Origin: Marsupella aquatica
Taxonomy: Eukaryota; Plantae; Marchantiophyta
Direction of reading: 5' to 3'
NCBI GenBank assembly: GCA_973895155.1
Contig: OZ316893.1
Span: 12,726,359-12,790,358 of the forward strand
Length of the DNA stretch: 64,000 bases
Part shown: piece by piece, positions 19,899-61,817 of the stretch
Layout of the letters: the number at the start of each line of letters is the position of its first letter
Position numbering within the stretch: the first letter of the stretch is position 1
Program-made: the position numbers and the translations under genes
Notes under the pieces: generated by a model
What the model saw: only the letters and a program-made list of their open reading frames with translations
What the model was told of the DNA's origin: nothing
Databases searched by the model: none

Positions 19899-19900
19899 AT

Positions 19901-25551: not shown

Positions 25552-25552
25552 T

Positions 25553-33318: not shown

Positions 33319-36300
33319 CCCTGGGCCCTCAGTCTTACTAATACAGGGCGGACGTGCAAACGACGCAAGGGTATTTTTAATACATTGCAAAGTAATTTTT
33401 ATAATAATTTTTAAAGTAGGCAACATCCCCATATATACATTTGGCACAATATTAATAATAAGGTTCTTATCAAATATGTGTCACAAGAATTTTACGCAAG
33501 GTTACCCAAAATGCATAGGACACGCGTCACTCTATGGTTGGTCCACATGTCATCACCTCATTAGTACACATGTCCATGTACTAAATCAATCATTTAATTA
33601 TGTGCTATCCTAAGGCAAGTTTGGTTTAGGGTTTGTGATCCATAAGTTGAGGCAAATGGGTTTAGGGAGACGTGTTTGGGAATTGAGTAGATATTGGGCG
33701 GGGGTCTTTGGGGCCAACTTGGTATCATCCCACATAGACGGATCAGATTAATTCTTGCTTTAATCAGACGGCCAGGTATGAGGCCTAGTGCGGGGCCTGG
33801 TGTATATGCATGCATTAGGGTTTGTGTGCTCTTGTGATCATGGGTGGGTGTCGGGGGGTACCAAGGGGCTGGCCACACGGGTTCAGTCGGGGGTTCACTC
33901 ACCAGCAGGCTCACCAGCTCCCCTTGCCTCATCCTCCTCGCCCCGCTCCCAGTGCCTCGTCATGCGAGGAGTTCCCCGTTCCTCTCTCCCTTGCTCTCTC
34001 CCGCTCCCGCTTGCCAGTTTAGGTCGTGCAATTTCAGATCCGCCATAGCTCTTGTATCTTCTTTGGGCTGCATGCGGGGTGCATCGTGTGTCTATCCTCT
34101 GTTCTTACACAATCAACTTATTGCTTTTGACTCCCCGTCAACTCCTCGCTTGGTAAAGTAAGTGCATGCCACCCTCTTGCTAGTCTGCGTTACAATGTCT
34201 GCCCGTAATCTGATGTGACTCTGTTTTTGTGCATTTTTGTGGGTCTGCCCGTTTTAATGTGGGTTTTTGTAGCTGACAATTTTGGTGTACATGTTCTCAT
34301 GCAGGGTTTTGGCTTGGTTGGACTCGGTGAAAGCCAAAGAGCAGGAAGCAAATCCGGCAGAGGCCCAAGCTTCGAAGGTATTACTTTGCATCCCTTTTTG
34401 TCAATCTAACTGTGATGCCATAAAGCAACCGAAAGCTTCTGAACCAGGTTCTGAACATCAGCTCGTTCATTGCAGATTGCAAGCAATCCATTTTGCAACG
34501 AAGTAACCTATCTTTGGAAAATGATCAAGTGATGTGAGGTGGCAGCATGTACGTTGGCAGGCAGCTTTGCGATTAAGCAGAGGTATAATAAGGATGTAAC
34601 AATAGTTATAACTCCAATCTCATCCCCTATCTCATCCATGCTGCCGCAACTACTTTCGCGCAATCGGACTTCTGAGCTCTTGTCTTGTGTGCTTGCTAGA
34701 GTCAATACAGCGAGAACATTCAAGGTGGGGACCAGCGGAAGTAGGTGAAGGTCAAGGTCAAACTTGAGTACGAGGACAAGGGGGAGGAGGCCCGGGAGGA
34801 GGAAGAGGATTAGAGGACTTGCATGCGTGCCTTCATTTGGTTTCCTGGCGTTTTTGTATAACAAACTGGCTACGGCTACTGCTACTGCTACTGCTACTTC
34901 GCGCGAGGCAAAAGACTTGTGGTGAAATGAGAGCAAGATAGGGGGAACATAAGCGAGGGAAAAAGTTGCCATTGTGAGGTGAGAACACTGCGTAGTTGTG
35001 CTCTCCCCATCTGGTTCATGCATGAGGAAGGCGAGTCAGAAAGAATAGTGGATGTCCATTGCGTTGCGATCCTTTGCGCACCTCCTGCACATAATTTTTT
35101 ATTGAGTACCATTTGACTTGTTTGAAGAGTGTAAAATCCAGGATTGGTGATGATCTCTGTGACAATCACGGGAGCATTTTGGTGAGACTGGCGCCAGGGC
35201 TGCCGATGAATGATTCCCTCCTCTCAGGTGAGTTCATTTCTTTGCTGTATGCATCAGCGGTATCAATCCCATTGTCAGCCTTGGTATACTTAGGTCCCCT
35301 TTCACAACTCCTCTAGCTGAGTTACGACCTCTCCAATCGTTTGCCTTTCGTCCGGGTTGTCCCAGCAGCACACCAGTGCTAATCACGTGATGTTGTCCAT
35401 TTCTCAGTGGGAATATAACCCTCTGATCCGGAGATAAACCCTCCTTCTCCCACGTAGTCCTTCGTGCAAGCTGCCACCTTATATATTTCATGTTATCGTG
35501 TCAGTTGGAGGTCTCCACGAAATTGACTCGATCTTGGGTTCTCCTTGAATACTAAGAATAATGTCGGTCATGTTCCGGATCAGGTTGTTCTGGAGTGGTA
35601 ATGATTTTCCCAGTCATTCTCAGTGGGTCGAGAACTGGAAAGAAGAGGCACCGGAACCAATAGGTGTCCAAACTATTACTGGTTTGAAACCACTGGAGCT
35701 AAATTGAAGCTCGGAAAACTTAGATTGGCTTGCAAGTTCAAAGTAGCTACTGTAAATTGAAGCTCGGCTGAGTATCAACGACATAGTTGTCCCCTAAAAC
35801 CCTACTGCGGTGACATGAATCACCGCGATAGCTTGCAGGTGTTCTACTTGCGGTGGCATGAATCACCGCGATAGCTTGCAGGTGTTCTGTTCCCATTGCT
35901 CGAGATTTTGAAGTGACTCAAACATACCCTCAAAGATCACTTTGGAATCCCAGGAATTTACTACCAAGTAATGCGCTTTTTTAGCTTGCATGGACAATAT
36001 AGCTTTCATAGCCCATACAACACACGGCGGGCCAGCCCGACAAGTCTCTTGGAAGGTTACCTCCCAGCCGGGTTGCAGCTGCTGCTCCCGAGCTGCCACA
36101 CGCCGACCACACTTTTCGTTGACTTCATTTGCTTCAGTCATCGTCTTCCATAACGCTTGGCATACCATGTGAGCTTTACCCCGTAGTGCCTATAAAACTG
36201 TTGTCTTGCTCCAGCCATCTTCTTATTTGTGTTCTTCATGACTCTGTTTCTTCTTCCCTTCGAGTCTCCAATCTTTGCTCTTCAAAACTGTTGCTAAGAA

Positions 36301-37914
36301 GCCGATTGATTGTGCTTGACATAGAACAACATTTGGGCAGAAGCCATTATGCGGCTGATGTCCGAATTATATCTTCTCACGTAGCGGCGTGGTTTTGACT
36401 ATTTTAGTGCAGGCTGGGATTGGTTTCACTTCACAGGGCCGTGACCCCAACGCGGATACATGACCGGCTAGCCGTGACCCCAACGCAGGTCTCAGCAGTT
36501 GGCAATGCAGGGAGCAAACGCAAATTGAAGGCCACTGGCTTGAATCTTGAGAGCGATCACATTTTCAAGTATGCAGCCTCGTCTGTCCGCCTTCTGGTTG
36601 CTAGCTTTGCCTCTAAGGCGGCTTCTCGCTCAGATTCAAAGGGTCACCTTCACAACCTTCACAACTAGATTGACCTTTGACGCCTTGGAGATTTCTATTC
36701 ACACACCAAGATGCGATCGAGTTCATGGCTTCTCGTGGAATCGGCCAGTGTGTTCCACGGCTTTGGTCCCGAGTCCCATATCTCAGTCCAATGTTGATCT
36801 TGAGTAGTATTTAAAGTATTTTCTCCATAGTATGTGGCATGGATACAGCAGTACATGTGTAGTTTGGTCAGACTTGCGAGATGTATATCTGGTCCAGCAG
36901 CTCCACGTCAATGCATGGATATGACTATTTCGACTGCGCTGTTTCTTGTCATGCTTACTATTTGTGTTGAACTCCTCCTAGGTCCCCCTTAAGCAAATAA
37001 TAGTGAAATAGAGAGGTTGGATGGTCTCGTCAAGTGAGCACATTGACTTATTTGATCATTCATTATATTGTTCTTTGTCGGGAGCAGGCACTAGTAGAAA
37101 CCGGGGGGTATTTAGACCCCATTAAACGACTATTCAGTACCGTATAGGACTTGGAAACGACTGGGAAGGACTCCAGTCCTTTATAGGACTGCGAGTCGTA
37201 TGTTTTGTTACTATAATCAACTGAGTCCTTTATAGAACTGGTTTATAAGTCGTTTAATAGACTGGATTTTCAGTCTATTTTAGTCTTTGTGTGGGTAGCT
37301 TTGGTGAGTCGTTTTCAGTCTTTTATGGGCTGCGATGATGAGTCGTTGGGAATGACTAAAAAGGTTATGGAGGGTAGTCTTTAAATATACTTTGTGGGGT
37401 ATGTATAAGTCTTTCATGTCAACTGGATATGAGTGATGAAGACCCCACTATACTACTTGGAATGAACCCACTCTTGTGCACAAATAACATATTGCATTCA
37501 TGTTTTATTGTGTACTTGGAATGAACTCACTCTATAAGTTCACCATTCATCATGTTAACATTAGAATACATAGTTTCAGAAAGCCATCTTCTATACCATG
37601 TACACTAATATGAATTCACAGATTCAAACTTCATAGACTACAAAGAAGGTCACAAAGTATTCTTCTATACCATACACACTAATACTTAAATGATAAAATA
37701 GATTCAAGTATCATAGACAATCACCATAGAGCCATAGTTTGACATCAATCACTTGTTTCATACATACAGAATTCAGAAATATCAATGTCACACACAATGT
37801 CTCCTTCATCCTCTTTACCAAATGGAAAAATTGGTACAGATATTTCTTGGATCTTTCCAAGGCAATGTCAAAATGTGACACAATTCACATGATTCTATCT
37901 ACACTTGCATTCAA

Positions 37915-40900
37915 TCACTGCAGACTAACACACTCTGATGGCCAGAGCACAAGAGATCCTACTGCATCTGCAATTATTTCCTGAGGTGGATCATCGTCTC
38001 TATTCAGAAATGGCAAATTACAATCAAATACAATCACTGTAGTCAACAACACTACTACATGGTCATCCGGGACCACTTTGCCATGGAATTTTGCATGATC
38101 CGGTCGCAAAATGCCTGTACCCACACATACCTGCGAGTCATCCTCCCATGATAGAAGATTATGGGCTGGCTCTGCTGTGGCTATCACCTCCACCTTACCC
38201 TGGCTGTTTTTCTTGGCTTTCCTGGGTGGCTTATACATGACATTATTCATACCTTGGTTGCGAGTCATGACTTTGGCACGAGTGTTTTGTGATGGTGATC
38301 GAGAATTGGCTACACTCTTCTTCAAAGAATCTGCATCCATATTTGACACTTCTGATTGTGTAGCAGGATTTCCCTGCAACATCATCTCAGTATCTGCCAA
38401 CATTGTACTTGCTTCAATTGAAGCATCTACAATCTTACTTGCATCCAATGTTGCTCCCAAGTTTCGACGTCGCTTCACCCTACTCCCACTTGGTTGAGAG
38501 TCTGTCAACTCTGCATCAACTACAATTCAGTGTCATGTCCAACATAAGTCAATCACTCATCACATGTGCTAAATGTACATGTCACCAACCACAAAGTTGT
38601 CACTATCTCCTTACCATTATGAATAGCCTTCTTCCCCTTCTTTGCCATTGCCATATGCTCCATGTCTGCTTCTGTTGATCAATAAACACACCACAATATT
38701 TAGGTTGAATCTATTAACCACTGAATTGTTGCTCAACATTCATATAGAGGAATTTAAAGCATCAGCTTACCTGATACCTCCTTGGCTATGGTCACTGAGG
38801 CACTGGGCACATCTTCTTCATTATTGCTCTTTGAATCACCTGATACATCAATCATGATGTCACATCTGATCCTAGTTCATCCAACCAGTTCTTACAGAAA
38901 AGATTACCTCCAACCGGCTTAAGCTTCACAAAACTCCATGCACTTTTCAAATGTAATGTACTGGATCATAGCAGGTTACCTGTCTCAGCAACCTTCTTGC
39001 CCTTCTGCTTATTGATTACAGGGTCCTTCTCTGCCTCCACTCTTCCTGCATTCAAACCATTCACTCAATTCATGAAAACTTACTTCTAACATTTGAACAT
39101 AGGACACAATGAACAATGGGCCGGTGTCATTTCCATACCTGTGTCAGATTTGCCAATTCTCTTTTTTGTTAACAAGGGCACACTTTGTACAATGTTGCCC
39201 TCATTGTTTGGTTGGGAACCACCCAATTTTTCAATCACAAGCTTGAAATTAGATTCCACTGATGCAAGAAGGTTCGCTACAGATGCCTCCACAATATCCA
39301 AAGGATCAGCCAATTTACTTTCCACTCGAGGGAGTCCACACTCTAATGACTTCAACCGTTCACACATCTCTGTGAGAGTTGTAATAGTTCCCTGTCATAA
39401 CACAGCTTACATATCTCAGATAACTGTCCCCAAGAACTGGTTGCTTACTTCCTACTACATTTCTTTCTGATGCTCAAGGCCAAATAGTCACAGAACATAC
39501 ACAATTACAACATAATCACCTGTTTGGAAGTCACACTTGTCACCTCACTCCTTTGTTTCATGAACTCCTCTCTCACTTCTTGTGCTGATGGTTCTTCACC
39601 TGTCAATTTCTTCTGCAGTCCACATCAACATACATATGAATGAAACCAAGTGTTGATTGTCAATGAAAATGTAATAATGGTAGCAAGATGATAAGTTTGA
39701 GGCTTACTATCAGGCATGTCACTGCCTTACCAATTGTTCTTTCATTGGAGCATAACTTCCTCTCCCAGCCTGTGAAAGGTGTTTCACTTTGCCTCGAGCA
39801 TTTGACATCAGTTCACTCTTGCTCTGTCCAGCCTCCGACATGAACCCTTTGATTAACCGTGTCCATTGATCCAGTTCCAATGATGGGGGTGGTGGCATTC
39901 TCCTGTTAGAACCATTGTCTATCCACATCCTTTTCAACCTATGCCTCTCTTGTTTCAAAATCCTCATTGCATAATCTGATATGCAATCTTCAACTGGGCC
40001 CTTACCATCATTACCAACATAGTCCCACCATTCAAGAATGTCCTTGCAGATAGCAGCCCAATCAGCTTTGTTCTGACTCCTAAACTCTGTAATGCTCAAA
40101 TCTAACCAACGCAATACTTCTCCTCTTAGGTTAGAATGCCAACGGTTCTTACCATCACATGTGGGAGTTATCCAACCTTCGGAATTCACTTCTACTTTAC
40201 CAAATTTGTTACTGTCTCCTGCCTTGGTACTCCTTGAAGCGCTACTAGGTGTCCCTCCACGGCCTGGTGTCCCCCCACGGCCTGGGGTCCCTCCACGGCC
40301 TGATCTCCCCCCACGGCCTGGATTGCATTGTCCAAACCTCCCTGGAGTCCCTGCACATTTACAGGATCCATTTACAGTCACTTACATTAGGTAAGTATGA
40401 ATCATAAATCCTGCTGCCAAATATACATTGGACTTCAGAGCAATTCTGCAATGACCAAGTTACCTCTCCCTTGGCGCATAGATGGTTCTGGACCACCTGT
40501 CCTATTGCTTTGTCTTGATGAATTAGGGCCGTTTCTCCCGCCTATGAATGATTGCCGCCTATCTGAACGTGGATGGCCTTTGTTGTTTTCGTGATTGTCC
40601 CAATCAGAGTCTGCATACCAACAGGTACATGCCACACTCATGGACCTGTAAGATAAACTCTTTGCCCTAGCTACACATCAGATAAGTCCATATTGAGCTA
40701 AATCTCTACTACCATCACAAAATCACTAGCACAAGGCACTTACTTGTCCAATCATCCTCCTCACCTTTCCATTGCCCTCTGTACCCGTCTCTACCACGCT
40801 CTGGGTGTTCATATTCATCCCATCCATCTTCTGCTCCATCATAGTCATCATCATAATTATCAGGCGTCCCTTGCCAATAACTCTGGCTCCTTCTAGGGTA

Positions 40901-41810
40901 TGGATTATGTGATTTCTCTCTAGCTGCCCACCTACCTAGGACTTGATGAGGGCCCTGGGCCCTCACTCTTACTATATAAAGTGAACCCCCCTGAGAACAG
41001 ACACCCCCCATGTACCCCTTCTTAATATTTTTGTTCACAAAAAAAATCCCCTTGTTAATGTAAAAATATTAACTTTTCTTATTAAATTTTATCCTTTTGT
41101 AAATTATAATATAGTTTTTCAAGGAATTGAAAACATCCTTGAATTTTTAAAATTGCAAATATCATACTGAAATAGATAAGACTTTATTTTGCATAGGGGA
41201 CTTGTATGTTACGCCTTTGTTTAGGGTACATATTTTATATAGTTAAACAAAATTAGTACCAGAGAATTATAGTTCTTCCTGTAGTATACAGACAAGCATG
41301 GCTGCACTATCCTCTCAGTGTTCCTAAAGCCCACGAAACCAAACTTGCCTTATGACGACAAATAATTAAATATCTGATTTACTATATGAACATGTGCGCA
41401 AGTAAAGTGATGACATGTGTGTCAACCATATAGTGACATGTGTACTTGGCATTTTGGGTACCCTTGCATAAGATTAATCTGACATGTATTTGATAAGAGC
41501 CTTATTACTAATATTGTGCTGAATATATATACAGGGATGTTGCCTACTTTAAAAACTATTATAAAAATTAGTTTGCATTACATTAAAAACACCCTTGCGA
41601 TGTTCGCACGTCCTCCTTGTATTAGTAACACTTAGGGCCCAGGGGATGAGGGCCCTGTGCATCCTGCACAGGTGCATTTTTCTGTGAGCCCCCTGCATCT
41701 GGGTCTCCATCCATATCCAATCTTTCCTCTTCACCCCACTCTCCAAGCCCCATGTCTGTCTCCATGTCATCACCCTCTTCCCCCATAGCTTCTGCACAGC
41801 ACCCACAACC
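37915..41810 (-). pseudogene. Multi-exon second CACTA ORF (TnpA-like position), interrupted by a MITE
   Basis: Exon-like ORFs 37915-38508, 39086-39367, 39719-40381 (GGTPGR repeats, DQWTRLI..S..MSNARGK), 40435-40641 and 40715-40952. The exon reads through (PVQDAQGPHQVLG) once 40953-41644 is removed. Confidence 0.6.
40953..41644 (-). mobile_element. 692-bp non-autonomous derivative (MITE) of the P-like element, inverted relative to it
   Basis: TIRs CCCTGGGCCCT; TSD GATGAGGG at 40945-40952 and 41645-41652. Its two halves match the two termini of 33319-61817. Confidence 0.93.
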
Positions 41811-41963
41811 AAACAGGGAGAATCAGCACACTAAATTCAAAGTATCAATCAATTTCATGCATATCCAACTATCCTAAACATCATTCCAGGCAGCAATTCC
41901 CGTTCTGTGACTCTGTGCAGGTAGTCATCCTCAACCTCATACTTGCCAATCGCCAGCTGTTGC

Positions 41964-44900
41964 CTATTGCAAATCATCAACCTCATCATATTCCATTTGC
42001 CCAGGTTCATCATATGTCTCTCTCAATGTTAAGGGGATGTAGTCAGTCCCTGCCCGAGTTGGAAGTACAGTCTCATGACTAGGATGCTCGAATGCAGCAT
42101 GGTCATCCAAACTGAACTCTACTTTACTTCCATCCATCCGCCTGTTCCGTGCTTGGCTATGGCATACCACCCTCCAGCCATGTGACTCCTCCACATCTGC
42201 AAAGAAAGCCTGTTCAACTTGGCTAGGGAAAACAAAAGGCTCAGACCATTCTGGTACTCTGGACCTAAAATTGGCCAACAAGAACCCATCATGATCACGC
42301 TTCATGGTGGCCCTTGGTCTCTGCCACTCTGATTTCACCCATGATCCCTTCATCAATATCACTGGGACACTTGTGTTACCATAATTCAACACCCAAATGT
42401 CGGTCAACTCCCCCACGTAACCCATCTTCATCCACCCCCTCTGTTCTTCAGAGGTTCTCTGCTCAAACACAGAAATCAAACCACAATCATATGATACACA
42501 ATGGTCACCCTGCTCATCCCTCACTCGATAATGATTTCCATAAGCTCTCATCCGTTTGTAGGTCAGAATAGACAATCGTGGTGGCACAGATAGAAGATAC
42601 AAATCCTTCTCCATATCTGGGTGATGTCTACTATGCTCTCGAATTGTCACCCGAATCCACTGCTCGAACTGTGGGAAGGGATCCTGCTGCCCATAGTGTG
42701 CAGCTTTTTGCATATCATATTCCCTGCAATATGAGGTACAGGCATAGTTAGGTCTAAACAACATATGACAACCTAAGATCACCCTTGGAACAGACAAGAA
42801 GCATCACAACAAAGGCAAGTCAATTCAATCACTCACCTCCACCATGGTTGCATAGGCTCTGTGTTTGCCAGCACATATGAATGAGCCTTGTCTCGAATCG
42901 CAACAGGCAGCTGAACAGCACGTCCCACACCTTCAACAACCTCGCCACTCACTCCATCATCTTCACCAGATTTCCAAACTCTTGTCATAGCTTCACCAGA
43001 CCCAGCCATGTACTCTGTTAGGAATCCCAACGTCTCATCCTTAATGTACCCCAATGCCATGGAAGCCTCTGGCCTGTAGTATGTTCTCACATGACCTTTC
43101 AACAACTTCATGTATCGCTCCATAGGGTACATCCATCTGGTACTGACTGGCCCATACTGCCCTAGCTCTTCTACCACATGGATTAGGAGATGAGTCATAA
43201 CATCAAAGAAAGCAGGGGGAAGTATATCTCCAAGTCACAGAGGACATAAGCAGCATCCTGCTTCAACTGCTCCAATCCTTGGGGATCCCACACTTTCACA
43301 CATATACGGCGAAATACATTGCACAGTCGAAGAATGACATTGCGGACTGGTTTCTGCATGAGACCTTTGAGGCATAGGGGCAGAATGTGCTGCATCATCA
43401 ACACATGGTAGTCATGTGTTTTCATACTGCCAAGTTTATTCTTTGTAATATGCTTCTTAAAGGCACCAGCATAGGCAGAGGGCACTTTCAGACAGCTCAA
43501 TCTATACAAGAATGTCTTCCATTCATCCTGTGTGCACACATAGGGAGCTTGGAACTTGAGAAGTACATTGGGATTGCTTGCATGGGGCTTCAACCAAAGG
43601 TGAGGGCGAATCCCCTTCTGTTGCATATTAGCTCGAACTGCTCCTGTATCTTTCTCACCCGACAAGAACTTCAGCAAGCTCTCACAAATATTTTTCTCAA
43701 TGTGCATGACGTCCACATTGTGTTTGTTGGGCTCGAATTCTTGCACTCCACAAAGCAAAGAATTCAACAACAGAAACACTAATTAACCACATAGGAGGAT
43801 TGTAACCAACATCAATCCACCATTGCTCCAATCTAAAATTGCAATCATACAGGGGCTGGAGGCTAAGTACATTACCCTCCAGTACTCCAACTCCAAGTCC
43901 ATCAAGGTCTGTCTTTTCACACCGTGTTTCACCACTGGATCCTCAGGTTCTCGATCAGTGGCACTTCTCTTGTCCCAATCAGCCTTCCTGGCTGCCCACC
44001 TCAGGACTTGCTCTCTGGTGACCCTCTGTGGTGGGCCACGAAGCTCTGTTTTGTTGTTGAAGTGTGCAATTTGAGACCGTGTGTGCCTGTAAGGATGATC
44101 AACAGGCAGATACCTTCTATGCCCCTGAAATTTCATACTGTGCAGGGCATGCGACCACTCACTTGTCACATTTTTCCCACATGGTGTGCACCCCACATAG
44201 CCCTTTGTCACTCGTCCAGATATGATGCCATGGCCTGGGTAATCTGCTATATCCAGCAAACAAATTGCATGCAGTCTAAAGGGGCTGGGTCAAAGAAGCC
44301 CCTTCAGAACATCATGGGTTAACACCCCTTCTATCCACAAAGTCTTCCACTCTTCCACTGCTGGAGCCAACATGATATCTATGAATTGCTCGGTCACAGA
44401 AGCTGGTCCAGGGATTAACAGCACCATCATGACAAAAAACCTCTTTGTAGTCATCCATGGGGGAAGGTTGTAATTTAGCAGCGTAACCGGCCAACATGAA
44501 TAACGGTTGTTTTTGTCTCCAAATGGGTTTACTCCATCCAGTGATAGACCAAATCGAAAGTTCCGCTTCTCTGCAGCAAACTGTGGCCACCTCTCATCAA
44601 CAAATTTCCAATGGTTGGAATCTCCAATGTGACGCTGCAGGCCATCACTGCTCTTGTTATCATGAGTCCATGTCATCAGCTTGGAAATGGCAGGGCATCT
44701 AAACAGACGTTGTAGTCTAGGAATGAGAGGAAAATGACGAAGAACCTTGGCAGGATGTGTACATTTCCCTACATTCTTGTACCTGTGCTTACCACAATGA
44801 GGGCATGTCAATTTATCTGCATGCTCTTTGCGAAAGAGAACACACCCATCAGGGCACGCGTCAATAGACACATAGTTCAGCCCAAGGTTAGACATCAATT

Positions 44901-45666
44901 TCCTAGCCTCGTACATATTTTTTGGAATTGAATTACCATCTGGTAACACATTTCGGCGCAGGAAGGTCAACAACTCTATCACAAATATATTGGGAACATT
45001 GTGATTGCCACAGATGTTCAACAACAACACGACAAAACCCAGCTTGGAGCAGTTCGACCCCTTGTAGATAGGAATGCAAGCTTCTTTGATGTGTTTTGGG
45101 CCCCCAAACACCCACTCCCTCTCTGCTGCACCTTCCCCAATGTCAAAGTCAGGTTCAGCTTGGCCGTCGCCAATGTGTGGCTGCAGTTCATTGTCCTCTT
45201 CTGATTCCACTGTGTCGTAAAAAGCATCAAGGTCTTCAAAAATCTCTTGAACCATTCTTGGGACATCCATCCCACCGTCCTCAGTGATTGCCTCTGCCTC
45301 TCCATCTTGGTCATCCACGTTCTCATGTTGGACCCCAGGACCATCCCCTGCACAGTCTATGTCCTGCTCTACGTAGTCTCTACGCCTAGCTGTATTAGAA
45401 TCCACAAAGTCAGCTCTCCACTCTTCATCAGAGGAGTCTTCTTCTGCTGGTACATTCCAAACCCTCCACCGAGGGTGCCTTTCATGCCGCAGCAGGTGAA
45501 GGTGCACAGTGTTCAAACTCAACGACTTGAATCCTTGGCACTGTGTGCATGGGCATCTCATCCTCCTACTCCTACCTTGGGCGGCCCGGGCTTGTTCACG
45601 CATCCACAATTTAGAATCATGATGCCTAATCCTAAATGGGTTGTGAAGAGGCAACCTTGGAGCCAT
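41964..45666 (-). pseudogene. CACTA TnpD-like transposase (Transposase_21 / DUF4218 / DUF4216 type), with stop and frameshifts
   Basis: IDACPDGCVLF, CPHCG, LRHFPLIPRLQRLF, LSLDGVNPFG, YSCWPV.LLNYNLPPW, DYPG, DVMHIEKN, KTHDYHV, RWMYPMERYMKLLK, EPFVFPSQVEQAFF. In-frame TGA at 44290 and a frameshift near 43200. Confidence 0.92.
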
Positions 45667-46466: not shown

Positions 46467-46702
46467 GCACGATGCAACCCGTAGGAGGACCCTACATAGG
46501 GCCTGACGGTTTGGAAGAGGCAGCATACCCACCAAAGTCTTCAACCAAACAGAGCCCAGCAAGTAGATTCACAGTCACACCCCACGCAGCAGGAAACAAC
46601 AATCACTTCAACTGCGACCAACCATGACAAGATGAGTTAGTTCAAGGATCACATTTATTACAAAATTGTGATTTATACAAAAATATGAGGGACTCCTACT
46701 CC

Positions 46703-49949: not shown

Positions 49950-51897
49950 AAGTGTTGCTTTTGTGGAGATGTCGTGTGTTCACGTCCTCTGATAAGCACC
50001 TTCGATCAGCAAGGTGAGCAGGAGCTGTACTTGCCTCACCAACAGCAACCAACCTTAAATTATCAGTTCCCACTCACTGTGTCATTCCATTGGTTCCAGC
50101 TAGGGGTCACAGTGTAAACATAGCATGAAACACTCATAATCAACTTGCTTACAAACTACAATATCCAGAAAGAGTGAAAGTCTCACCCTCCAGTGAGCAG
50201 CAGAGAGGTAGTTCACTAGATGTGTTGATGTGCAGTTAAACCTCCACTATTGCTTACTTTTGGTGTATGCTGCTCAAAAGAAGACATATTAGTAGCAGCA
50301 AATTGCAAATAATGGCCATAAGCAAACCGTGAGAGTTTGCAGAATTCTACGACAAATCCATCACAGCAATGCTCCACAAGAATGAAACCAAGCAAAATTT
50401 GGTGACCTCGGCCAATGACAAGGCCAATGTAGTGAACAATCCTTGACCGATCAGGATATGGATTGGAATTACAATTAGTCAGCTCTTCTTCTTTGTTTTC
50501 TAACTCTAGGGAAATGAGCATGACCAGGGAATTCTCTGAGAAATAGAAGTGCACAGGGAAAATGAAATTGGCTCATTCAGCTGCGCAAGATGGACCATTG
50601 CAGCATACTTGGACAGTTGTTCCGCAATACATAAAATACCCTAACTTACATGCAATCGATACAATCTGCTTCTGTTGGCTGTCCTACAGCTCACGGCAGT
50701 GCCGTTGGGATAGGGTAAGTGAATATTGCCATAGCTGAAGCACATTGAGCTTGCAGCATTAAGTGAAGGAGCATGGCCAAAAGCAGAAAAGACAGATAGG
50801 TTTTACAAGAAGAAACTAACAACCGCCAATCTGCTCAAATCCGCTGCATAGATCAGTATCAAACGAACTACATAGCCCTCTTTTGAAAACAATCCAATGT
50901 GCTTTGGCTGGTGGATGACAAGGACTGGGAGAAGAGGAAACGTCTACACAATCAATCCAAATGACGGGACACAGAGACCAGGCACAGAGAGGATTTGTGC
51001 TTAGACAAAAACCACAAATTGTAGCATGGGCGCCATAGCATTCTAGACAAAGCACAAAACATAGAATCTATGAATCTATGACTCATGGACTAACAAAGTG
51101 CTTGGGTAGCATGGCAAAAGGAAAGACAAATTTCAAAATGACAACATGGCCCGTTTCCGCCATTCATTTGATGTTGCTAGGTGTCCGTAAGATGACTGAC
51201 CCACAGACAATCCCTACAACCTCATCTGACAGACTGCTTTTCTAGTGTGAAGAAATACATGATTACAAGCAACACCACGCCTCATCCAAGCAGGGAATTG
51301 AAAACATAACCATGTCATTCCTGTATTGGACAGTGTCCTCTACCATTGCACTGCATAGTTGTTATTCCATGTTGGTTGTCAACAGTTTGTTGGCTTGCCA
51401 TAGCCTAGATAGAACAATAAAATACTATACATGAATACAACAAGAAAAATCTGCATACAGTGATGGCCCGGTCACTTGAGGAAAAACCAAAACTAAGAAG
51501 GCAGGCACATGGGCAACCGAGAAAAAAAGCTAGTGGCGCCTCGCGGAGAATCCAGAATGGTAATGCCCTTGCCCAGAAGCTTGGGAAACAAAAGAGAAAA
51601 AAGCAAAACGAGCTACCGACCACCGTCTTGACCAGGCCCGCCACAAGGTATGGCTGGAGGCTGTGGTCCCCCCCTTAGTAAAGAAAAGGATGCAAGTGTG
51701 TGCACGGGGCACAAGGCATGTTCGGATCCAGGGAGGAGCACAACAGTAATGTCAAGCAAGAAGTGTGGAGAGACCAAACAGTAAACAAAAATAGGGGAGA
51801 ACAAACATACATCAGCAGTAGCAGGAAACGAGAAAGTTGATTTGGGAGGGATTGTAGGGAGAGAGCTTTTGGTGGGCTCAGCTACGCGTGAAATATC

Positions 51898-52905
51898 GGG
51901 AGATAGATGCGCGAGAGAGTGAAGAGGGTGGCAAGCGGAAGACAGGTTGGGACTGGACCCTTGGTGCCGGGGGGTAATATATGGGGTAATATACGCAGAG
52001 ACAAAGTTGTACTCACTTGATTGAGTAGGCAAGTGGGTGGACAAAGATCAACAACCGCAGTAGCAGCACAGCCAGAGAGGCAACAAAGGGGAAATTTCAG
52101 CAAAGGTAAGCGACACAGACAACTCACCCTCCGTACCCTCCGTACCTAACCTAACCTCCCAGCTCCAAAGTTGCAAGAGCAAGAAGTCAAAGGCACTGAA
52201 ACAAAGCGGGTGGCAGTTTCAGTATCTCAGGCAATGCAAAATTAATCCATACTTAATCAGCCCTGGCCACACGTTCCTTCAAAGCCCCTCATACTAGCAA
52301 GCAGGTCTGGCCTGTGAATCTTGTAGTGCTTAACAATACAAAGCCTTCCCAAGTACCAATTCAAAAGTAGCAGAAATAGATCGAAAGCTAGTTCCGATGA
52401 TAGCTCCCAAAAGCTTTCCTCAGCCCGATTCCTATGCACATCAGAGGAGCTCAAACCATTTAGAAATGAGATCACAGATTACTCTTGACAATCTCAAAAA
52501 TGCCACAACCTAAGCACTGACAGCTCCGTCCCCCCATTCTAATTTCTCCGACAAGTTTGCCTTAAAGCACATCCACTCGCAGTTCAAGCAGATTCAGAAT
52601 CATCATAGACAATAGAGTGCTCCACCATAGCCCACGGTAGGTCCACGACCATCGTAACGAACGCTCCGCCCAGCTCCGCCCCTACCGGGGCTTATTAGTA
52701 TTGCTCACTTTTAAGAAGGGCAGTTTTCACAAAAGCAGTCTAATTGCCTAGACTGCACTAGAAAAGTTGGAGGCAATATCACAGCGGAGCATTCTGCGTC
52801 TAAGGGCCAGCGACGCCGTTCAGGAGATAGATGCGCGAGAGAGTGAAGATGGTGGGGAGCGGAAGACGGGTTGGGACTGGACCCTTGGTGCCGATGGGTA
52901 ATATG
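51898..52905. repeat. ~85-bp direct repeat pair inside the CACTA (51898-51985 and 52822-52905)
   Basis: GGAGATAGATGCGCGAGAGAGTGAAGA...GGTTGGGACTGGACCCTTGGTGCC is present twice. Confidence 0.8.
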
Positions 52906-55251
52906 TGGGGTTTCAATGAACAATGGGCCAGTTTGAGGAGGATTAAGAAGCGCGCACCCCATGTTCTTGTGTGGTGGTTGGGTGGGGTTTTGTTTGATAG
53001 AAGAAGAAATCACCATTCTCTTATGGAAGAAAGAAAATCGCAGGAAACAGTGGGCGGGAGAACAAGGCATGTAATAGAGTACTTGCGGTTACTCTAACGG
53101 TGCACGAACACTCACCTTTGTCTTCCGCTTTGTCTGCAGTGGCCGACAAATCCCAGAGCGCTGCCGAGCTCGGTGGTTGCTTGATGGTTGAAAGTGCGCA
53201 GCTCACGTCCCTACCTCAATGTCCAACTCAATGTGGATGCAGCAGCTTCTCTTGGTCGCATCTCCTCTTCGTCGCATCTCCTCTTGGTTGCATCTCCTCC
53301 TTGTCGCAACTCCTCTTGGGGTTCACAGCTAGCGCGCAGCAGCGCTCGATGGTTGACAATGCGCAGCTGAGCTAGGAGAAGAACTGAATGATTGTGGCTG
53401 CTCTTCTCTGCAGTCCAAGCACCCGGCTGGCAGCTCCGCAAACCCTGATCGTAGCTGCAATCTCTACTCCGTTGATTGAAGAGCCTCCCTCTTCAAAGCT
53501 CGGTTGACCTAGCTCTGCGATTGACGGAGCTTTCATCCTCTGCATCAAAAACCCTCCACCACCCGACCTTGCGCGTACTTCAGGAAGCTCCTTACCACCA
53601 AGCGCTTCTCGGGGATGCCTCGCAACAATGTCCTTACCACCTAACGACTCTCAAGGCTGACTCTCCCAAACCAATGCAAACCCCTTGCAATCTAATACAC
53701 TGTGTCCAAACAGAGGCAGAACTGTCAAAAGCGCTCGCAGTAGTGGACGCAACAATGTGAAGTGAATGAGCTCCGACCTTCCCTCGCAAAATGCTTACCC
53801 TAAACTCTGCTCGTATGCTAAACTCACAAACATTCCGCAGGTTGTTCTGTCGCAAAGCACAAATGATGGGGCCCAAACGCATGGGGCGCGGACACTCGAT
53901 ACTTCCCTTCACAAAAACCCAGTTTCATACGATGACCAAAGCATACTCACCCTAACCCAAGACTTAGTGCAAACAGGACCCTAAACGCTAATCCAGGGCC
54001 CGTTTCCGTTGAGTTGAGCCGTTAGGCTTGATAAGTCATGGCCAGAGTCTTGATGTAGGGGAACAATGTGGACTTAATTAGGCAACAAATGAGTACATTT
54101 GGGTGAGGGTAAAGGATAACTTTAAATAAATCCCTTTGGTGACAAAGATGAGGCCACTTAATCAGTTGTGCCCCACCCTACCCCCCCCCCCCCCCCCTCC
54201 GGGCCCCCCTCATGGAATTACCTCTATCAAAAGTACCCTAAGTTATGAAAAGTACCCGTTACATGGACCTGTTTTGAGAGTTGAAAGATAATCAGAAGTA
54301 AAGGGACCATGGAGAAGAGGGGGCCAATGTAATTAAGTCAAGCATCACTCATTCAAAATACACATGGACATAGTTGGGTACTATATGAGACACCAGGGGA
54401 CAAGACATTTTTGAAGGGTTGGCATATTTACCCTCATCCCTAAACTTGGATGTGGTGCACATAACATCCACTCTCCTACCCCAAGTACAAAACAACTCCT
54501 AACAACTTAGGCCCAATGTAGTCACTTGTGCCCAACCATGTTCATTAAGAGCCTAAATGTTTTCATTTCACCCACATTGCATGTTGTTGGGGGTTCCATG
54601 GTCTGTTATTATAATGTAACTCCTCATGTGAACTTTGTGAAATTTAGTATTTAAGGGACCATGGAGAAAGTAGGCCAATGGAGTAATTGGAACCATGAAC
54701 CTTTTTGGTCACAAATAAGGCCATCTAATGAGTTATGCCCCTTGCTATCACCATCTTTATAGAATTAACCCTCTTCAACATAAGTGATCATTACCCATGT
54801 AGTGCTAGACTATTCACCGTTCACAAAGTAGCAAGGACCCTTCTCATAGTCATTTAGAGAACCATATAACACTAATAGTCTTTTGTAGTTTTCAACAAAA
54901 CCGGCACAATGAGAGCGAGTCGTTTCAAGTATGGAAAAAGGACTTAGTGGGCTTAGTCCTATAAGGTATGGTCTAAATGGCCCCGGTTTCTACTAGTGAG
55001 GTTTGTGGTGGGCTGGACACAAGGTGGATCTAGCTGCCTTAATTTGAAGCAATCTTTGCAAATTATACATAGGTGAGTGGGGAATCACTGATACTTCTTG
55101 TTGTCTTTGCTACTTTCATTTGATCTGTGCATTCCAATTTTTTGTCGCTCTTGTATGGATTTAACAAACAGGGCTCTGTGTGCTTTGCTCAGGTAAGCAT
55201 TTCTTTTCACGTTCTGTGAGTTAGGCTTTGTCTTTTTGCTATAGATATAGA

Positions 55252-56146: not shown

Positions 56147-59100
56147 ATGCCGCCTGCCACTATATTTCAAGCAGACTCAGAGTCAGGGGAACGTAAACCC
56201 TTGACATCATATAGCTACAAGATAGGTGAAACCTTTTATGATGCTAGAAAGAACTTGGAGTCAGGTTTTGACTTTGAGTTCCATTTCATGGACGTCAACC
56301 TTGCTTGTAGAATGTTGGAGAAATTTGAGAGGTATAATCTAGTAGAGGATTGTGGTGGAAAGATTGTCATTGTCCCAAAATACTCCAACAATTTTGTCCA
56401 AGGAGATGTGCAGAATGGGGCACAACAAGTCCTTGGAAGCAGCCATGCATCCAATGGACCTGGTAGCACATCTACTGGAGACCAAGTTGGTACTCCTGCA
56501 ATAGATGAACCCTCTAACCAGCCTGCAAGTGGAGCTCCATTCCAGGAGACCCAGCCTGCAAGTGCTTCATCCCAGGAGGACCAGCCTGCAAGTGGAGCCC
56601 AATCCGCTGAGTCTCAAGTCAGCCTAGACTCTGTATTGATGTCTCAGGACTTAAAGATAGCATGGGAGACTTCTGTGACAAAGTTGAGAGAGTGGATGAC
56701 TTTTCTTAAGTGTGTGGACCACAAATGGAAAGTCAGAACGTGGGACAAGGATGGTGTGCCTCGTGGGCATATTGAGTGTTGCGAATGTGACTACAGATAT
56801 CAAGCAGTTGCATGTAGCAGTGTCAAGGGTGTGGATAAAACTATGGTCAATAATGTGTTTACAAACTTCAGAGTGAAACACTTGCCATCAAAAAAGCATG
56901 CTCGACGTGTAGCATCTAATAGGGGTGAGAAAGTGGATCACAGAGTGATTGCTTAGAGGGCTGAGGCTAGTACTCTGAATCATAGAGCCATACTTGATCA
57001 ACATGTCAAGATTGTGGAGAAGATTAACTCAGCACAGATTGCTGGTGGGCTTGTTGGGCATGATACATTTACTGTAATAGGTGATGTGGACAAAGAGCCT
57101 ATAGAGTTGGTCAAGTTCAAACTTCGTTGTGAGTTTTGTGCTGAAAACCTAACATTGATTCCAAAACAACGCAATTTGGAAACAAATCTGGAAAGCCCAT
57201 GTGGGAGGCTTGAGTCATCTTAATTATGTCATGAGAAGTCAAAGGCCTGCTATGGGCAATCCAGTGCACAGTGGAAGGCCAGGGAGACCTCGTGCACCAG
57301 ATGGAAGAGATGTGAAACAACAGAAAATAGCTGGGTTCTTAACTCGCCCCTCAACTGGAGGAGCTTCCAGTTCTAGTTCAAAAGACAAAGGTACTCTTGA
57401 CAATCTCTCTTTGCTATGCTGGGGTCTCTGGCGTGATGTGGTGAAATATGGTTCAGATACCAGGCCTATCAAGGAAATCTTAAATGATCAACTGAAATTA
57501 GATGGGAATTGGTATGCAGAGCCCATAGTGAGGGCAGAGGTGTGGTGTTTGACAACTCAAGAAACCTGTGTGATCTCTGGTTTATTTAGACACAGAGATT
57601 GTAGGCGAATATCAGAACTTGGTGGAGGTTTTATTGACTTGACCTGTTCGCTCTGTTTTAGCATAAAAACAGAGCAGGACTTTCGACTCAGAGTTTACAG
57701 GGAGTACAAAGCTATTGAGAAACGAGGTTGTAGAACAACTGGTAAAGGTAGGCGGTTAGACTACCTGACTATTCCAGAGGTTCAGTACCAAGCCAAAAGC
57801 TATAGGAACCAAATTTTGAGAGAGCAAAAATTGCAGAGAATCTTGAGTCACAAGCTACTCATGGCAAAGGCTCTGGTCCCCAGCATTAGTGAAGTGTGTC
57901 TTCACTATCAAGAACCAAACAAAGCAACTGTTTTGAAATTCTGTCATTCAATAATACTAGCACACAAACGAGGTGCCTTTGGTGGGAGAGGAGCTCTGTG
58001 GGATATGTTGTCAGACATAGCACAAAACATCAATAGGGAGAAGACAGGATATCGTTTTAAGCCTGGAACAACGCTTCTCTGTCAAACACTATTTTTACAT
58101 GGTGGAAGGCGTGTAGTTGATTGTCTTGCAACCAATGGAATTGGTCCTACTATCAACACCCTTCAACGAGATAGGAGAGGTATGGCAGTGTTTCGTGCTG
58201 GAATTCATGCAGAGCAATTCCAGTTTGTTGTGGAAATTTTTTCCAAATTGAAAGCTCGATTAAATATTCATGGACCCATTCCATGCTATTTGGCAGAGGA
58301 TGAGACTTGTGTGAAGAGAACTGTGAGGTGACTACTCATGCCTCCTCTTGCTCTGGTCATTCTTTCTGTTTAATATTTTTGTGTTACACAAAAATATTGA
58401 ACAAGCAACTAATGAAAAGACCGCCTGCTATTGGTTGCAGATGGCTGCCTAAACATGATACTCTTCTTGGGTTTTGTGGGACAAAAACCAACCATGAGTG
58501 TAGTGTTGGTTTGGAGATCATGGTGGAGGAAGGAGAAGTTGGCTTCAACAACATTGCAGATGCATTTGACAGTTATGTTGTAGCTCACCAGGCAAGGTGT
58601 TTGATAGTAAATGCCCTTGTTACTGGATTCCCTCGATTGTGCATATTGGGGATGGGTACATGTAACAAGTTTGATGCTCCATGGGTCAGGCGACAATGGA
58701 ATACCCTAGCCTCATTGTGGACAACTCATTGCCTAGAGTCAGTGGGGCCATTATTGGGTCATGCCAGTGATGGGGATGCACGGAGGAGAAAGCTTATGTT
58801 GGAAGACTACTCTGGAAAAGGAATACCAGGGCCAAGACAAGACCTGAGGTGGGAAGCTTGGACATTGACTCACTCTATGACCACTGCTGGACCATTGATC
58901 CATGCATATGGACTCCACGATCAAGATTTTATTCATAATGGGAAGAAGTTAGTGAACCCATTGGATTCTACTTCTCGTATTTTGAAATTAGGAGCAGAAA
59001 TGGCGAACTTGAGTCACATCATATCTTGTTACAAGGTGTACCTGAACAGTGATCATGGCTTGAATGAAGAGGACAAGTCAAGGAAAGATAGGCAAAATTG

Positions 59101-60852
59101 GGCTAGTGCACAATGACTCTGTAGCCGCAAAGTACAGTCCTCCTTACAGATGCTTCGCCAACGTGGTGATGCAAGAGTTGAACAGACTCTTGGGACAGAA
59201 GTTTACACTAGGATATGTGCAGACTACATTGATATATTTCTGAATACTAGTCTGAGTTTGCGACAAAGAATTGTCCATTGTGGGAAGGTTGGATTTTTCT
59301 TTAGACTATGGCGTCAATGGTGCTTTCATGGAAACCATTCTGTGGGAGGGAATACACAACCAATCAGTTTCACAAAAAATTGCATTCCCATGCAAAGTTT
59401 CCTTGACATTCAAATGTCAGTTCATTTTGTGGTCCTGTTGGTAATCCAATTCAGGGACAATTTTCGAAATCTTCCAGTACCATTGCATTTGACTGGGTCA
59501 GATGCTTGTGAGCAGTTTTTTTCTGCTGTAGGAGGTATGAATGGTCATGAGCGAAGTTATGACTTGGCTGAGTTAGTAGAATGCGCTACCAATCGAAATC
59601 GATTGGCTGCAATGGATCTGGCTGAAGGAATGATGGGTGCAGGGAAGAGCCACAAAAAACATGAAAACATTTGGATGAAGCTCACTACAATCCCAGCAGG
59701 GATTCCTATTGTAGCAGATCAAATGGACTATGCAGGGATTGAAACAAATGGAGAAATAGTGATTGCTTTGCAAGAAGGTCTTCAGCTTGCCCAAAATGCA
59801 TGCACTGAGTTACAAATGAACCCTTCCACATCCTGTAGAGACAAGGTGTGGTGGAATTCCCCATGGAAGATGGAGGCTAAAGGGGTCAAGTTTGGTAGTT
59901 GGTGTGATGTGAATGTTGATACATTAGCAGATGGAGGGGTAGATGTGAAGGAATCTGAGGAAAGTGAAACCACCTCTCATGAGCCTGCATCCTCATCAGT
60001 TCCAACAGAAGTTGCAGAAGAGGACTCCGAGTCTCCTGTCCCAACATAACAACTTTTGATATATGCAGACCCAGATGTAGAGGGAGTTGCTGCTCAAATG
60101 GAGGCCACCATGGGCATCATGCATTCTGACTTGATATATGGAGCAGCAAGACAAGATGTGAAGCCAACAGTAGAATATCAAAATCGGTCCATTTACAAAA
60201 GTACTTTGGTTAGCCAGTTGACCCTGAACCCTCTCCTCAGTAAAGACAGATTGACCCGGATAAAGCAAATCACTACTTCAACAATTTAGTGGACAAACCC
60301 AATGTGAGGGCAGGTGCTCAAACAATGTTTGTTACAGTAGGTTCAGACTGTGGAGTATTATTTTTGGATGATACATACAGTGCTCCTGAAACCAGAAGTT
60401 CAGAGGCAATTTCACGAACATTGAGAGGAAAAGGACGAGGAAAGAGAATTGGCAGTAGATCAGATGATCTTGTTCCAAATCCAAAGAGGCCCAGAGGTGC
60501 AGCTGTTGCAATGTCTTCAAATACAACACCAAAATACATGTGGTGGATAGGCAGAATACAAACTATACACAAAAAATATGGTGGGAAACAGGACAGAGCA
60601 AGAGGTGAATTGGATTTGCTTGATAGGCCTGGTGGTGAGGAGGCATGTAAAATTATGTTCCAATGGTTTTCTCCAATTGGAACTAGTAGGCATAAATTTG
60701 CCTACAATGTGTGTGATCCACAATTCATCGATTTGGACTGTGTTATATCAACAGTTCACTTGACAGTGGATCCACTATGCCCAGGAGTTTTTCAGTTGCA
60801 TCCAGATGATGCAGTTGCTCTTGATAATTTTGCCAAAAACAAAATTCCTTAA
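56147..60852 (+). pseudogene. P-element-like DDE transposase with N-terminal zinc fingers; inactivated
   Basis: Fragments 56147-56956, 57014-57223, 57201-58327, intron 58328-58440, then 58441-60289 and 60289-60852. Motifs LAEDET, HASDGD, DQDFIHNGKKLVN, DRQNWASAQ and SDACEQFFS fall in P-transposase order. In-frame stops at 56954, 59114 and 60047, plus two frameshifts. Confidence 0.75.
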
Positions 60853-61817
60853 TCTTATATAACAGGGTAAGCAATTGTCATAGTTATTGCCTGGTTATTG
60901 CATGTACCGTTTAAGTATGTAATTGGTATGAAAAGCTTTTGAATAGAAATTTTGATAATGCTTCTGACATTTTAATCAATTGTTTGATTGCAGAGATGAC
61001 AGAGAAATTACCTAGCATGTCTAAGTAACAATTTAGCCAAAGAGGACCTAATGGTATTATTCTCATATTTCTCAGCAGTGATTTTCTTGTGTAATGAGTA
61101 TGGTCCAAAATCAATTATTAATGTGTGGTTTGATGTATCAGGTTCAAAAGAAGCTGCCAAGAACTGTATTTGAGCTAGTGACTTCACATTGACCATCATG
61201 CTTAGTCATGATCATGGGGAACTTTACTTGAGTCAAGCAGAACTTTACTTGAGTCAGGGAGATTTTTACAGACTGAGGGAGATTTTTACAGACTAAGAAT
61301 CATGCTTAGTTTATAATATTTAGAACAATTTAGCAACAGTATACAGTCATGCATACTCAATAGTATACATGTATATGCAATAATATACTTGCAATTATTC
61401 TTCCGAGGCACTAGAACATTCTAGTGTTAATTTAATTAGTTCATGTTTATGAGGTTTATAAGCAACCAACTATACTATAATTATCTGGTGCTAATTTTGT
61501 TAATCTATATGAAACCTATACCCACATCAGGTTTCTTATGCAAAATAACATCATTACACATAATAATTTATGTTTCTGAGTAGTTTGCATGTTTATATGA
61601 TATTCATAATTTTAAAAAGTCAAGGGTATTATCAATTATCTGAAAGACCCTTTTATAAGTTACAAAAGGGTAAAATTTAATAGCAAAATTTAATATTTTT
61701 ATATTAACAAGTGATATTTTAATGGAAGAAAAAATATTAAGAAGGGGTACAAGGGGGGGGGGGGGTGGTCTGTTCTCAGGGGGGTTCACTTAATATATAG
61801 AGAGTGAGGGCCCAGGG

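Follow-up and report, generated by a model that had tools for sequence, protein, structure and literature searches.

The described systems closest to the locus presented here are the P element of Drosophila (transposase structures 6P5A and 6PE2) and THAP9. Ends beginning with 5'-CA are a hallmark of P elements. BuT5 is a MITE derivative of P (PMC3698922), and the MITEs reported below are comparable to it. A P-type core outside animals, as found here, is also known from fungal P-like elements of Pucciniales and Allomyces, and in the fungal set of PMC5751038, according to its available part, no more than 11 transposase-bearing P copies were counted. For plants, the accessible text of PMC6839031 gives a 2019 list of seven DNA-transposon superfamilies from which P is absent, and our literature search, which covered sources other than Repbase, found nothing on P elements of land plants. 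The same text describes GingerRoot from Selaginella, bryophytes and aquatic animals, and as unreported from seed plants; its range is similar to the one described below, but its transposase is integrase-like and unrelated, so that the analogy is one of range only. hAT elements (Hermes), Transib/RAG1 and the MULE-related IS256 type (ISCth4) share with the enzyme studied here an RNase H fold, a helical insertion domain and the C/D-x2-H motif.

The window, i.e. the whole 64,000-nucleotide stretch of DNA analysed here, comes from the liverwort Marsupella aquatica. Positions 33319-61817 hold what is very probably a decayed DNA transposon with a predicted P-type transposase fold, which likely moved by P-type cut-and-paste.

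Ends, target site and neighbouring insertions

The element (Table 1) measures 10,586 bp once the nested CACTA is subtracted, in agreement with the 10.6 kb of a preliminary description made from the DNA alone, and the imperfect 17-bp TIRs described there agree at 16 of 17 positions. Of the perfect 8-bp TSD that had also been claimed, the two identical copies stand, but the length does not follow from this copy: the direct repeat flanking the element has 11 bp and is compatible with a TSD of 8 or of 10 bp. We take 8 bp because a 692-bp MITE of the same family, together with its empty site, fixes the length. In contigs of the public sequencing runs X3 and X4 exactly 700 bases are skipped at this MITE, which corresponds to 692 plus 8. 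MULE/Mutator elements produce TSDs of 9-11 bp, and the MITE and its empty site therefore do not match them.

Table 1. Coordinates of the P-like element, its gene and further insertions in the window
Feature	Position	Strand	Remarks
273-bp MITE	17521..17793	.	ends CTCGGGGGG/CTTGGGGGG; exact 8-bp TSD GGTTTCCC
281-bp decayed MITE	26545..26825	.	78% identity to 63506-63802; TSD 7/8
Left TSD	33311..33318	.	ATACCACT; run X2 has the empty host site
Left TIR, 17 bp	33319..33335	+	CCCTGGGCCCTCAGTCT
Left sub-terminal region	33319..33627	+	82.5% identity with an end of the 692-bp MITE
Long leader	33628..37088	+	inside the element; no ORF >175 codons
Nested CACTA/EnSpm	37089..54998	-	3-bp TSD AGG at 37086-37088 and 54999-55001
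692-bp MITE, non-autonomous	40953..41644	-	same family as the element, opposite orientation, within CACTA; unambiguous 8-bp TSD GATGAGGG
Remaining leader to start codon	55002..56146	+	covered by contigs of four of four public sequencing runs
Transposase exon 1	56147..58327	+	predicted ubiquitin-like N-terminus, two C-x2-C...H-x5-H fingers, third C/H cluster, helical/HTH region, first catalytic Asp
First catalytic Asp (EDET)	58299-58301	+	exon 1
Intron, 113 nt	58328..58440	+	GT-AG, phase 2; homologues continuous across the site
Transposase exon 2	58441..60852	+	second Asp, D-x2-H, helical insertion domain with DRQNW, catalytic Glu, acidic linker, conserved C-terminal domain
Second Asp (SDGD)	58769	+	exon 2
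D-x2-H	58925-58936	+	exon 2
Catalytic Glu	59510	+	exon 2
Right TIR, 17 bp	61801..61817	-	CCCTGGGCCCTCACTCT, reverse complement read from 61817
Right TSD	61818..61825	.	ATACCACT; identical to left TSD
297-bp MITE, second P-like family	63506..63802	.	ends CTCGGGGG, like those of L003; exact 8-bp TSD CCCTCCAA

In total the window harbours five P-like insertions, the main element and four MITEs of 270-700 bp, with an 8-bp TSD that is exact in four and matches at 7/8 positions in one. When the whole window was scanned for pairs of inverted 17-mers that match at 14/17 or more positions and are flanked by an exact 8-bp repeat, three pairs emerged, all three of them with P-like ends. The segments 26548-26825 and 63509-63802 had also been considered as LTRs of a host retroelement; this was rejected, as their TIRs and TSDs mark them as MITEs. 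The CACTA element carries a Tnp2 domain (PF02992, E 5.7e-36), and PF13963 and PF13952 were also matched.

The public contigs contain empty sites as well as many copies dispersed elsewhere. Loose ends at exactly 40953 were found in 6, 7 and 13 contigs of runs X1, X2 and X3, respectively; the agreement beyond this point is only 0.4-0.5, and therefore many different flanks meet at one boundary. A joint at 61817-62056 is seen in all four runs with a short side of 27 bases, and may stem from a further insertion into this host family.

The end type of the family is C(C/T)C..GGG. In the copies of the window and in three metagenomic relatives (L002-L004, see below) the ends start with CCC, CTC or CTT, in one decayed case with TTT, and none of the ends found starts with CA. 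A sub-terminal AGGG(G)TA occurs in seven of eight ends. Since this motif was picked after inspection and its count, matched by 10-139 of 500 shuffles, is at most weakly above them, we do not claim it as a binding site.

The transposase gene

Downstream of a leader of 4.9 kb in total, the element encodes a transposase of about 1,530 amino acids, split by one intron. The reading frame is broken by three stops and two frameshifts: exon 1 has a stop at 56954-56956 and a frameshift near 57192, exon 2 has stops at 59114-59116 and 60047-60049 and a frameshift near 60266. This copy is a dead, decayed full-length DNA transposon. The intron is supported by intron-less homologues, which run through the site, and by a single contig of low depth (run X3, depth 4) that lacks exactly its 113 bases. 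All five motifs of the spliced ORF named in the preliminary description (AEDET, SDGD, DQDFIHNGKK, DRQNW, DACEQFFS) were recovered in the order given there.

A DDE triad with a C/D-x2-H motif following the second Asp is present in the window and in 84 relatives. The first Asp is conserved in 78/78 rows with a residue at this position, the second in 84/84 and the Glu in 82/82, while the two positions of the D/C-x2-H motif are kept in 84/84 and 83/84 relatives. When the family profile is compared with 6P5A, the first Asp aligns to P residue 230, which we take to be catalytic. The D(2)H-to-E spacing is 195, against 191 in the P element of D. buzzatii.

The region outside the catalytic core differs from Drosophila P and THAP9. 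Pfam finds no THAP domain in the window pieces, in 43 long relatives or in 36 relatives bearing the N-terminus; a pattern search run without a positive control gave 0/117 long proteins, and the weight lies with the Pfam scans. Three Cys/His clusters conserved among the relatives stand where THAP would be, as had been proposed, and are accompanied by a predicted ubiquitin-like domain. The model of this N-terminus (pLDDT 68.9, pTM 0.32) gave ubiquitin-like matches alone, at E 0.01 or weaker, and for the Cys/His clusters no structural match was among the matches listed. The lack of THAP is not the novel part, because the available text of PMC7776569 lets it be expected outside animals. With about 1,500 against 751 amino acids the protein is also larger and has an additional C-terminal domain, to which no family could be assigned from its top Atlas score of 0.76. 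The TIRs of the family, at 15-26 bp, are shorter than the 31 bp of P.

Relatives and origin

The association of this ORF with such TIRs recurs in other copies. The metagenomic relative L003 is a complete element of 6,096 bp with an intact ORF of 1,493 amino acids, 26-bp TIRs and the 8-bp TSD GTTTTCAT; L002 has both TIRs and no TSD, and L004 one end. L003 is the only one of 46 metagenomic loci with both TIRs and a TSD. A full-length protein of 1,529 amino acids is known from Calypogeia fissa (CAM6105892.1, 68% identity over exon 2). Named relatives come from Calypogeia, Riccia and Adiantum, and also from a coral and a sea spider. No seed plant is among the named matches of the searches for relatives, and 166 pattern matches on viral contigs included no relative. 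One sequence labelled as a Planctomycetota MAG (P0092), on a contig of 1.1 kb, is probably a contamination.

In trees without a true root, the window and all five other named land-plant rows fall into a clade of 17 rows with a support of 100 in two programs. The preliminary description had left both retention in non-seed plants and horizontal acquisition open. Judged from the trees, long-term retention appears likelier than a recent acquisition, because the named land-plant relatives share the clade of the window and those from coral and sea spider are placed elsewhere. The family would thus most likely be a land-plant branch inherited since early land plants, and, given the rootless trees, it may also go back to an ancient transfer that reached the early land plants. 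A much wider claim, namely an ancient undescribed P-type branch that is normal in land plants other than seed plants (in liverworts and ferns, and probably in mosses) and lost from seed plants, with intact autonomous members, many MITEs misfiled as hAT, end-binding by Cys/His fingers and transposition without GTP, the cofactor regarded as a mark of P enzymes, we regard as unlikely.

As to origin alone, if the family had passed horizontally, and fairly recently, from animals or fungi into the plant lineage, this could account for the relatives in coral and sea spider and for the missing seed-plant names. Against it, the window, Calypogeia, Riccia and Adiantum form one clade on a long stem (0.42-0.47) within which the liverwort rows cluster together, and the rows beyond the land-plant clade are about 24-38% identical, so that we consider such a transfer distinctly improbable.

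Predicted fold and placement of the family

The fold was modelled for a homologue (P0016, 46% identity to exon 2, pLDDT 87.1), which stands in for the protein of the window. Foldseek placed 6P5A first (E 4.6e-10, TM 0.70 by target); together with 6PE2 it was the sole match at E <= 0.001, with RAG1 (3.3e-3) and Hermes (4.2e-3) as runners-up. VIA, run against 48,161 chains, gave 6P5A a Z of 24.1 (rmsd 6.2, 415 aligned residues) and the next chain 8.0, whereas Hermes reached 6.5 and ISCth4 7.1; hAT, Transib/RAG1 and IS256-type enzymes lie at 6.5-8.0. The P-like identity put forward from the DNA is supported by this comparison, with Hermes far from the top. The model predicts the HTH of 6P5A together with its split RNase H fold and helical insertion domain; the catalytic residues lie on a strand, at the end of a strand and on a helix. 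Further likenesses to Drosophila P and THAP9 are the order D, D, D-x2-H, E, the 8-bp TSD and the 3'-terminal G. The nearest matches in the ESM Atlas (scores 0.95-0.97) are P/THAP9 clusters and two unnamed clusters in which Basidiomycota is the commonest phylum. From the fungal P-like elements, as they are described, the family is set apart by its land-plant branch with an N-terminal module of its own.

In sequence the ties to P are thin, and the family could be seen as a separate superfamily with the fold of P, standing beside P by its ends, DNA-binding module and cofactor use. Identity to 6P5A is 14%, the P models of Pfam are almost blind to the family (the five protein pieces of the window match no Pfam family at all), and nothing relevant came up when PDB sequences were searched with exon 2 or with the profiles A1 and A6. 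In addition, every end found is of the non-CA type, and the family makes up a large group closed in itself, with 918 representative proteins at E <= 1e-30 and with motifs of its own such as GFCG..H.C and SDGD.RRR. However, some members are linked to P: PF21787 was matched in 5/68 (best E 2.6e-4), PF12017 above its own cut-off in one of 43 long relatives, and PF21788 in some. The family profile retrieves 6P5A, at only E 0.028 and ranked under two low-complexity matches, the Atlas neighbours include P/THAP9, and the TSD length is that of P. According to the available part of PMC4455052, groups are united in Repbase when iterative searching brings their transposases to convergence. A separate superfamily is therefore very unlikely in our view.

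The 4.9-kb leader, the intron and the ordinary hypothetical-gene annotation of several relatives would fit a captured or domesticated host gene within a non-autonomous TIR element moved by another transposase. But fold and motifs mark the ORF as a DDE transposase in its own right, a compact relative of about 50% identity is flanked by related TIRs and an 8-bp TSD, and copies are numerous, diverged and often broken, which leaves this explanation extremely improbable.

hAT and Zisupton elements also produce 8-bp TSDs, and a SAP domain is typical of Zisupton. The 8-bp TSD, the short TIRs and the SAP domain of one distant relative would suit an unusual member of hAT, MULE or KDZ/Zisupton, a reading with next to no probability. 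The Foldseek and Z values above largely refute it, and the Pfam matches listed include no hAT, MULE or KDZ family (68, 43 and 36 proteins scanned, with 25 of 29 families listed for the 68; no KDZ in the window pieces).

For the decayed P-type transposon that we prefer, the Cys/His clusters would take over the role of THAP and bind the element ends, and the transposase would pair both ends and excise the element. Each 3'-terminal G would then be joined to target strands 8 bp apart, and repair of the stagger would leave the 8-bp TSD. The MITEs may be mobilised in trans by the same enzyme or by one of a sister family such as that of L003.

Transposition of the canonical animal P element depends on GTP and involves end cuts staggered by 17 nt. 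P contacts GTP through K385, K400, V401, S409, F443, D444, N447 and D528, as given in the available text of PMC7776569. In a tentative mapping, based on a 0.4-bit HMMER stretch and, for D528, on the spacing to the catalytic Glu, D528 corresponds to D in 72/82 relatives, S409 to S in 32/84, and D444 to D in 12/84 and E in 23/84. N447 and K385 are outside the five commonest residues. On this mapping D528 is well kept and S409 and D444 are kept in part, and the other contacts are not kept. That GTP still docks on the terminal G, as it does in Drosophila, has slightly better than an even chance; a pocket that was rewired or lost falls slightly short of one.

With this family the land plants gain a P-type lineage, and the 64-kb window alone contains five insertions. 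As Pfam barely detects the protein and the ends are without CA, its MITEs would go unclassified or be filed under hAT. With the intact L003 and the Calypogeia protein it becomes testable whether GTP docking is general to transposases of the P fold or special to the Drosophila branch, and a plant-native P-type enzyme is a possible tagging tool for bryophytes or ferns.

Catalytic core, terminal modules and gene of the transposase

Searches of Pfam and PDB sequences with the five coding segments of the broken window ORF gave no matches. The fold was modelled for P0016, a homologous protein that covers the core, using 68 sequences (pLDDT 87.1). This model, which is not one of the window's own protein, finds the Drosophila P transposase in Foldseek with E 4.6e-10; two P chains are the only matches at E ≤ 0.001. 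Structure comparison by VIA likewise sets the P transposase (Z 24.1, rmsd 6.2, 415 aligned) against RAG-like (8.0), Transib (7.5), ISCth4 (7.1) and, for hAT, Hermes (6.5). The preliminary description had recognised a P-type transposase by the order D, D, D-x2-H and E. This holds: across a diverse set of 84 relatives, both Asp residues and the Glu are invariant wherever the position is filled, the D/C-x2-H motif is near-invariant, and the P0016 model fits best on 6P5A, the Drosophila P structure. The weak sequence links agree with P identity, namely PF21787 matched in 5/68 relatives, PF12017 above cut-off in one of 43 and weak in one other, ESM Atlas neighbours that include P/THAP9 clusters, and 6P5A reached at E 0.028. 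Membership of the enzyme in the P fold family, as predicted from the model, is well supported.

No THAP domain was found in the N-terminal part by Pfam scans of the window pieces and the relatives. In its place stand, as had been proposed, Cys/His fingers: two of the form C-x2-C...H-x5-H, plus a C/H cluster of five ligands. Conservation of the ligands ranges from 21/21 to 34/34 rows (exceptions are one Cys with 19/28 and one with 32/33), and the window protein retains all of them. A ubiquitin-like domain is predicted in the N-terminal part as well, at a best E of 0.01; of the matches listed, nearly all are ubiquitin-fold chains. The C-terminal domain is conserved among the relatives. In the distant relatives P0114, P0120 and P0129 the C-terminus is extended by further modules, namely Tudor (PF21743), SAP (PF02037) and C1 (PF03107), which suggests chromatin- or DNA-reading add-ons.

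The long spliced ORF is backed by homologues uninterrupted at the single intron and by one contig (depth 4) without exactly the intron bases. A Calypogeia fissa protein (CAM6105892.1, 1,529 aa) is full-length and collinear with 5/5 window pieces. Judged by its three stops and two frameshifts the window copy is inactivated; in run contigs, other copies read differently at the two frameshift sites and at stop 60047.

Element ends and neighbouring elements

Features of the window
Feature	Position	Strand	Details
Tandem-repeat arrays	14700-15850		units 18-19 bp and 11/20/31 bp
Small MITE	17521-17793		TSD exact
Ty1/copia	19420-26027		479-bp LTRs, 99.6% identical, ten 18-bp repeat copies in each; gag and pol parted by one stop
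Small MITE	26545-26825		TSD 7/8
Ty3/gypsy-type insertion host	28281-33318 + 61826-63520	minus	domain order gag, protease, C5 DNA methyltransferase, RT, RNase H, integrase, PHD finger
C5 DNA methyltransferase of host	31413-32387		PF00145, E 1.3e-11
Large P-like element	33319-61817		inverted repeats 16/17 identical
Nested CACTA (17.9 kb)	37089-54998		TSD AGG; Tnp2; weak F-box match
692-bp MITE	40953-41644	opposite to large element	TSD GATGAGGG, 8 bp only
BRCT of CACTA	46703-47563		E 1.8e-13
PHD-like fingers of CACTA	48153-48857
Transposase ORF	56147-60852	plus
Intron of ORF	58328-58440		113 nt
Small MITE	63506-63802

The ends of the large element are the imperfect 17-bp TIRs described before, and its length without the CACTA, 10,586 bp, agrees with the earlier 10.6 kb. 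Of the perfect 8-bp TSD, the presence of ATACCACT on both sides stands, but the direct repeat comprises 11 bases, and this copy by itself is compatible with an 8- or a 10-bp TSD. Self-comparison of the window revealed the 692-bp MITE as a second family member, whose ends are 82.5% and 80.2% identical to those of the large element. An unbiased scan for inverted 17-mers (≥14 matches) flanked by an exact 8-bp repeat returned three pairs: these two elements and the small MITE at 63506. The other two small MITEs came from a motif scan. A terminal pattern built from all these ends has four matches versus 0.12 expected, which is only a rough control given that origin. All three small MITEs (273-297 bp) have 8-bp TSDs and ends like those of the metagenomic locus L003, which suggests, from sequence, that this genome harbours a second P-like family. 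The empty target of the 692-bp MITE (40945-40952 + 41645-41660) resembles the end of the element itself, with 11/13 bases equal to the reverse complement of the TIR; this single case may point to target preference or be coincidental.

The large element was inserted just ahead of the protease motif of its host. For the alga Klebsormidium, gypsy elements whose Pol includes a Dnmt3-like domain have been described (PMC5890265); the methyltransferase gypsy here, in a likely liverwort and with a PHD finger besides, may widen their known range. The Ty1/copia is a recent element.

Copies elsewhere and range of the family

Part of the large element is present in six public runs, and contigs of four (X1-X4) were compared with the window. 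The region 54900-62300 is covered in 30/30 bins in all four, with contig identity from 99% to <90%. Seven X2 contigs join the right flank to sequence like the left flank (28/30 bases, by eye) and represent the empty host site. At the 692-bp MITE, X3 and X4 contigs omit exactly 700 bases. Further contigs depart at exactly 40953 (X1 6, X2 7, X3 13) with a flank agreement of just 0.4-0.5; therefore many insertions have the same end.

Among 46 metagenomic loci inspected for ends, the ORF occurs with such TIRs at both ends plus TSD in L003, at both ends in L002 and at one end in L004. L003 is a complete element of 6,096 bp with a single intron-less ORF of 1,493 aa, termini of 26 identical bases beginning CTCGGGGGGGTCACTC and the TSD GTTTTCAT. 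In L002 the ORF is intact and the TIRs, beginning CCCGGGGGGAGCACT, measure 15 bp, but no TSD was found beside them; the end of L004 is of this type. The remaining 43 loci, many of them short or decayed, gave no convincing end pair.

The family is sizeable, with 918 representative proteins passing a threshold of E ≤ 1e-30 and 5,050 passing the looser E ≤ 0.001. Land-plant names appear on 25/97 hits of one protein search (Riccia sorocarpa 9, R. fluitans 12, Adiantum nelumboides 4); a second (23 hits) adds Calypogeia fissa and a third (78 hits) the animals Nymphon striatum (2) and Oculina patagonica (1). No seed plant is among the named hits of these searches, most hits being nameless. Two trees were calculated, one of 102 of the 216 core-covering proteins (thinned at 62% identity) plus four partial named rows, the other of 43 rows, both unrooted and without canonical P outgroups. 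Both place the window in one 17-row clade (support 100) with Calypogeia, Riccia, Adiantum and L003, group the liverwort rows and put the named animals elsewhere. A liverwort is therefore the likely host organism, and descent within land plants is more likely than recent transfer. Of the two origins considered earlier, retention in non-seed plants is thus favoured and recent horizontal acquisition less likely.

Mechanism and place among P elements

For Drosophila P, PMC7776569 describes THAP binding to internal sites, pairing permitted by GTP, cleavage with 17-nt overhangs, joining 8 bp apart and a terminal G contacted by GTP. With the predicted fold, the catalytic residues, the 8-bp TSD and the 3'-terminal G all shared, P-type cut-and-paste would be the likely route of transposition, and the Cys/His clusters, from their position, may bind the element ends. 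Under a tentative mapping of the GTP contacts, the D528 equivalent is D in 72/82, S409 is kept in 32/84, D444 is D in 12/84 and E in 23; neither N447 nor K385 is conserved. Human THAP9 retains N447, D444, F443 and D528 (PMC10824691); therefore the window family has drifted further.

That the observation is real is well supported. P elements of Chlamydomonas are entered in Repbase. Others are known from fungi (PMC5751038) and Trichomonas (PMC3698922), and P is not among the seven plant DNA-transposon superfamilies that a 2019 paper names (PMC6839031). No land-plant P report was found in the partly accessible literature on P elements in plants and bryophyte repeats, a scope outside which lie Repbase Reports and genome-paper supplements. 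Canonical animal P elements have THAP and CA ends. Both were looked for here and neither was found; therefore the large element is not in that family. THAP is confined to animals (PMC7776569), and its lack is therefore expected. The large element likely moves as P elements do. What is new about it is that its ends lack CA, that it has this N-terminal module and that its family ranges into land plants.
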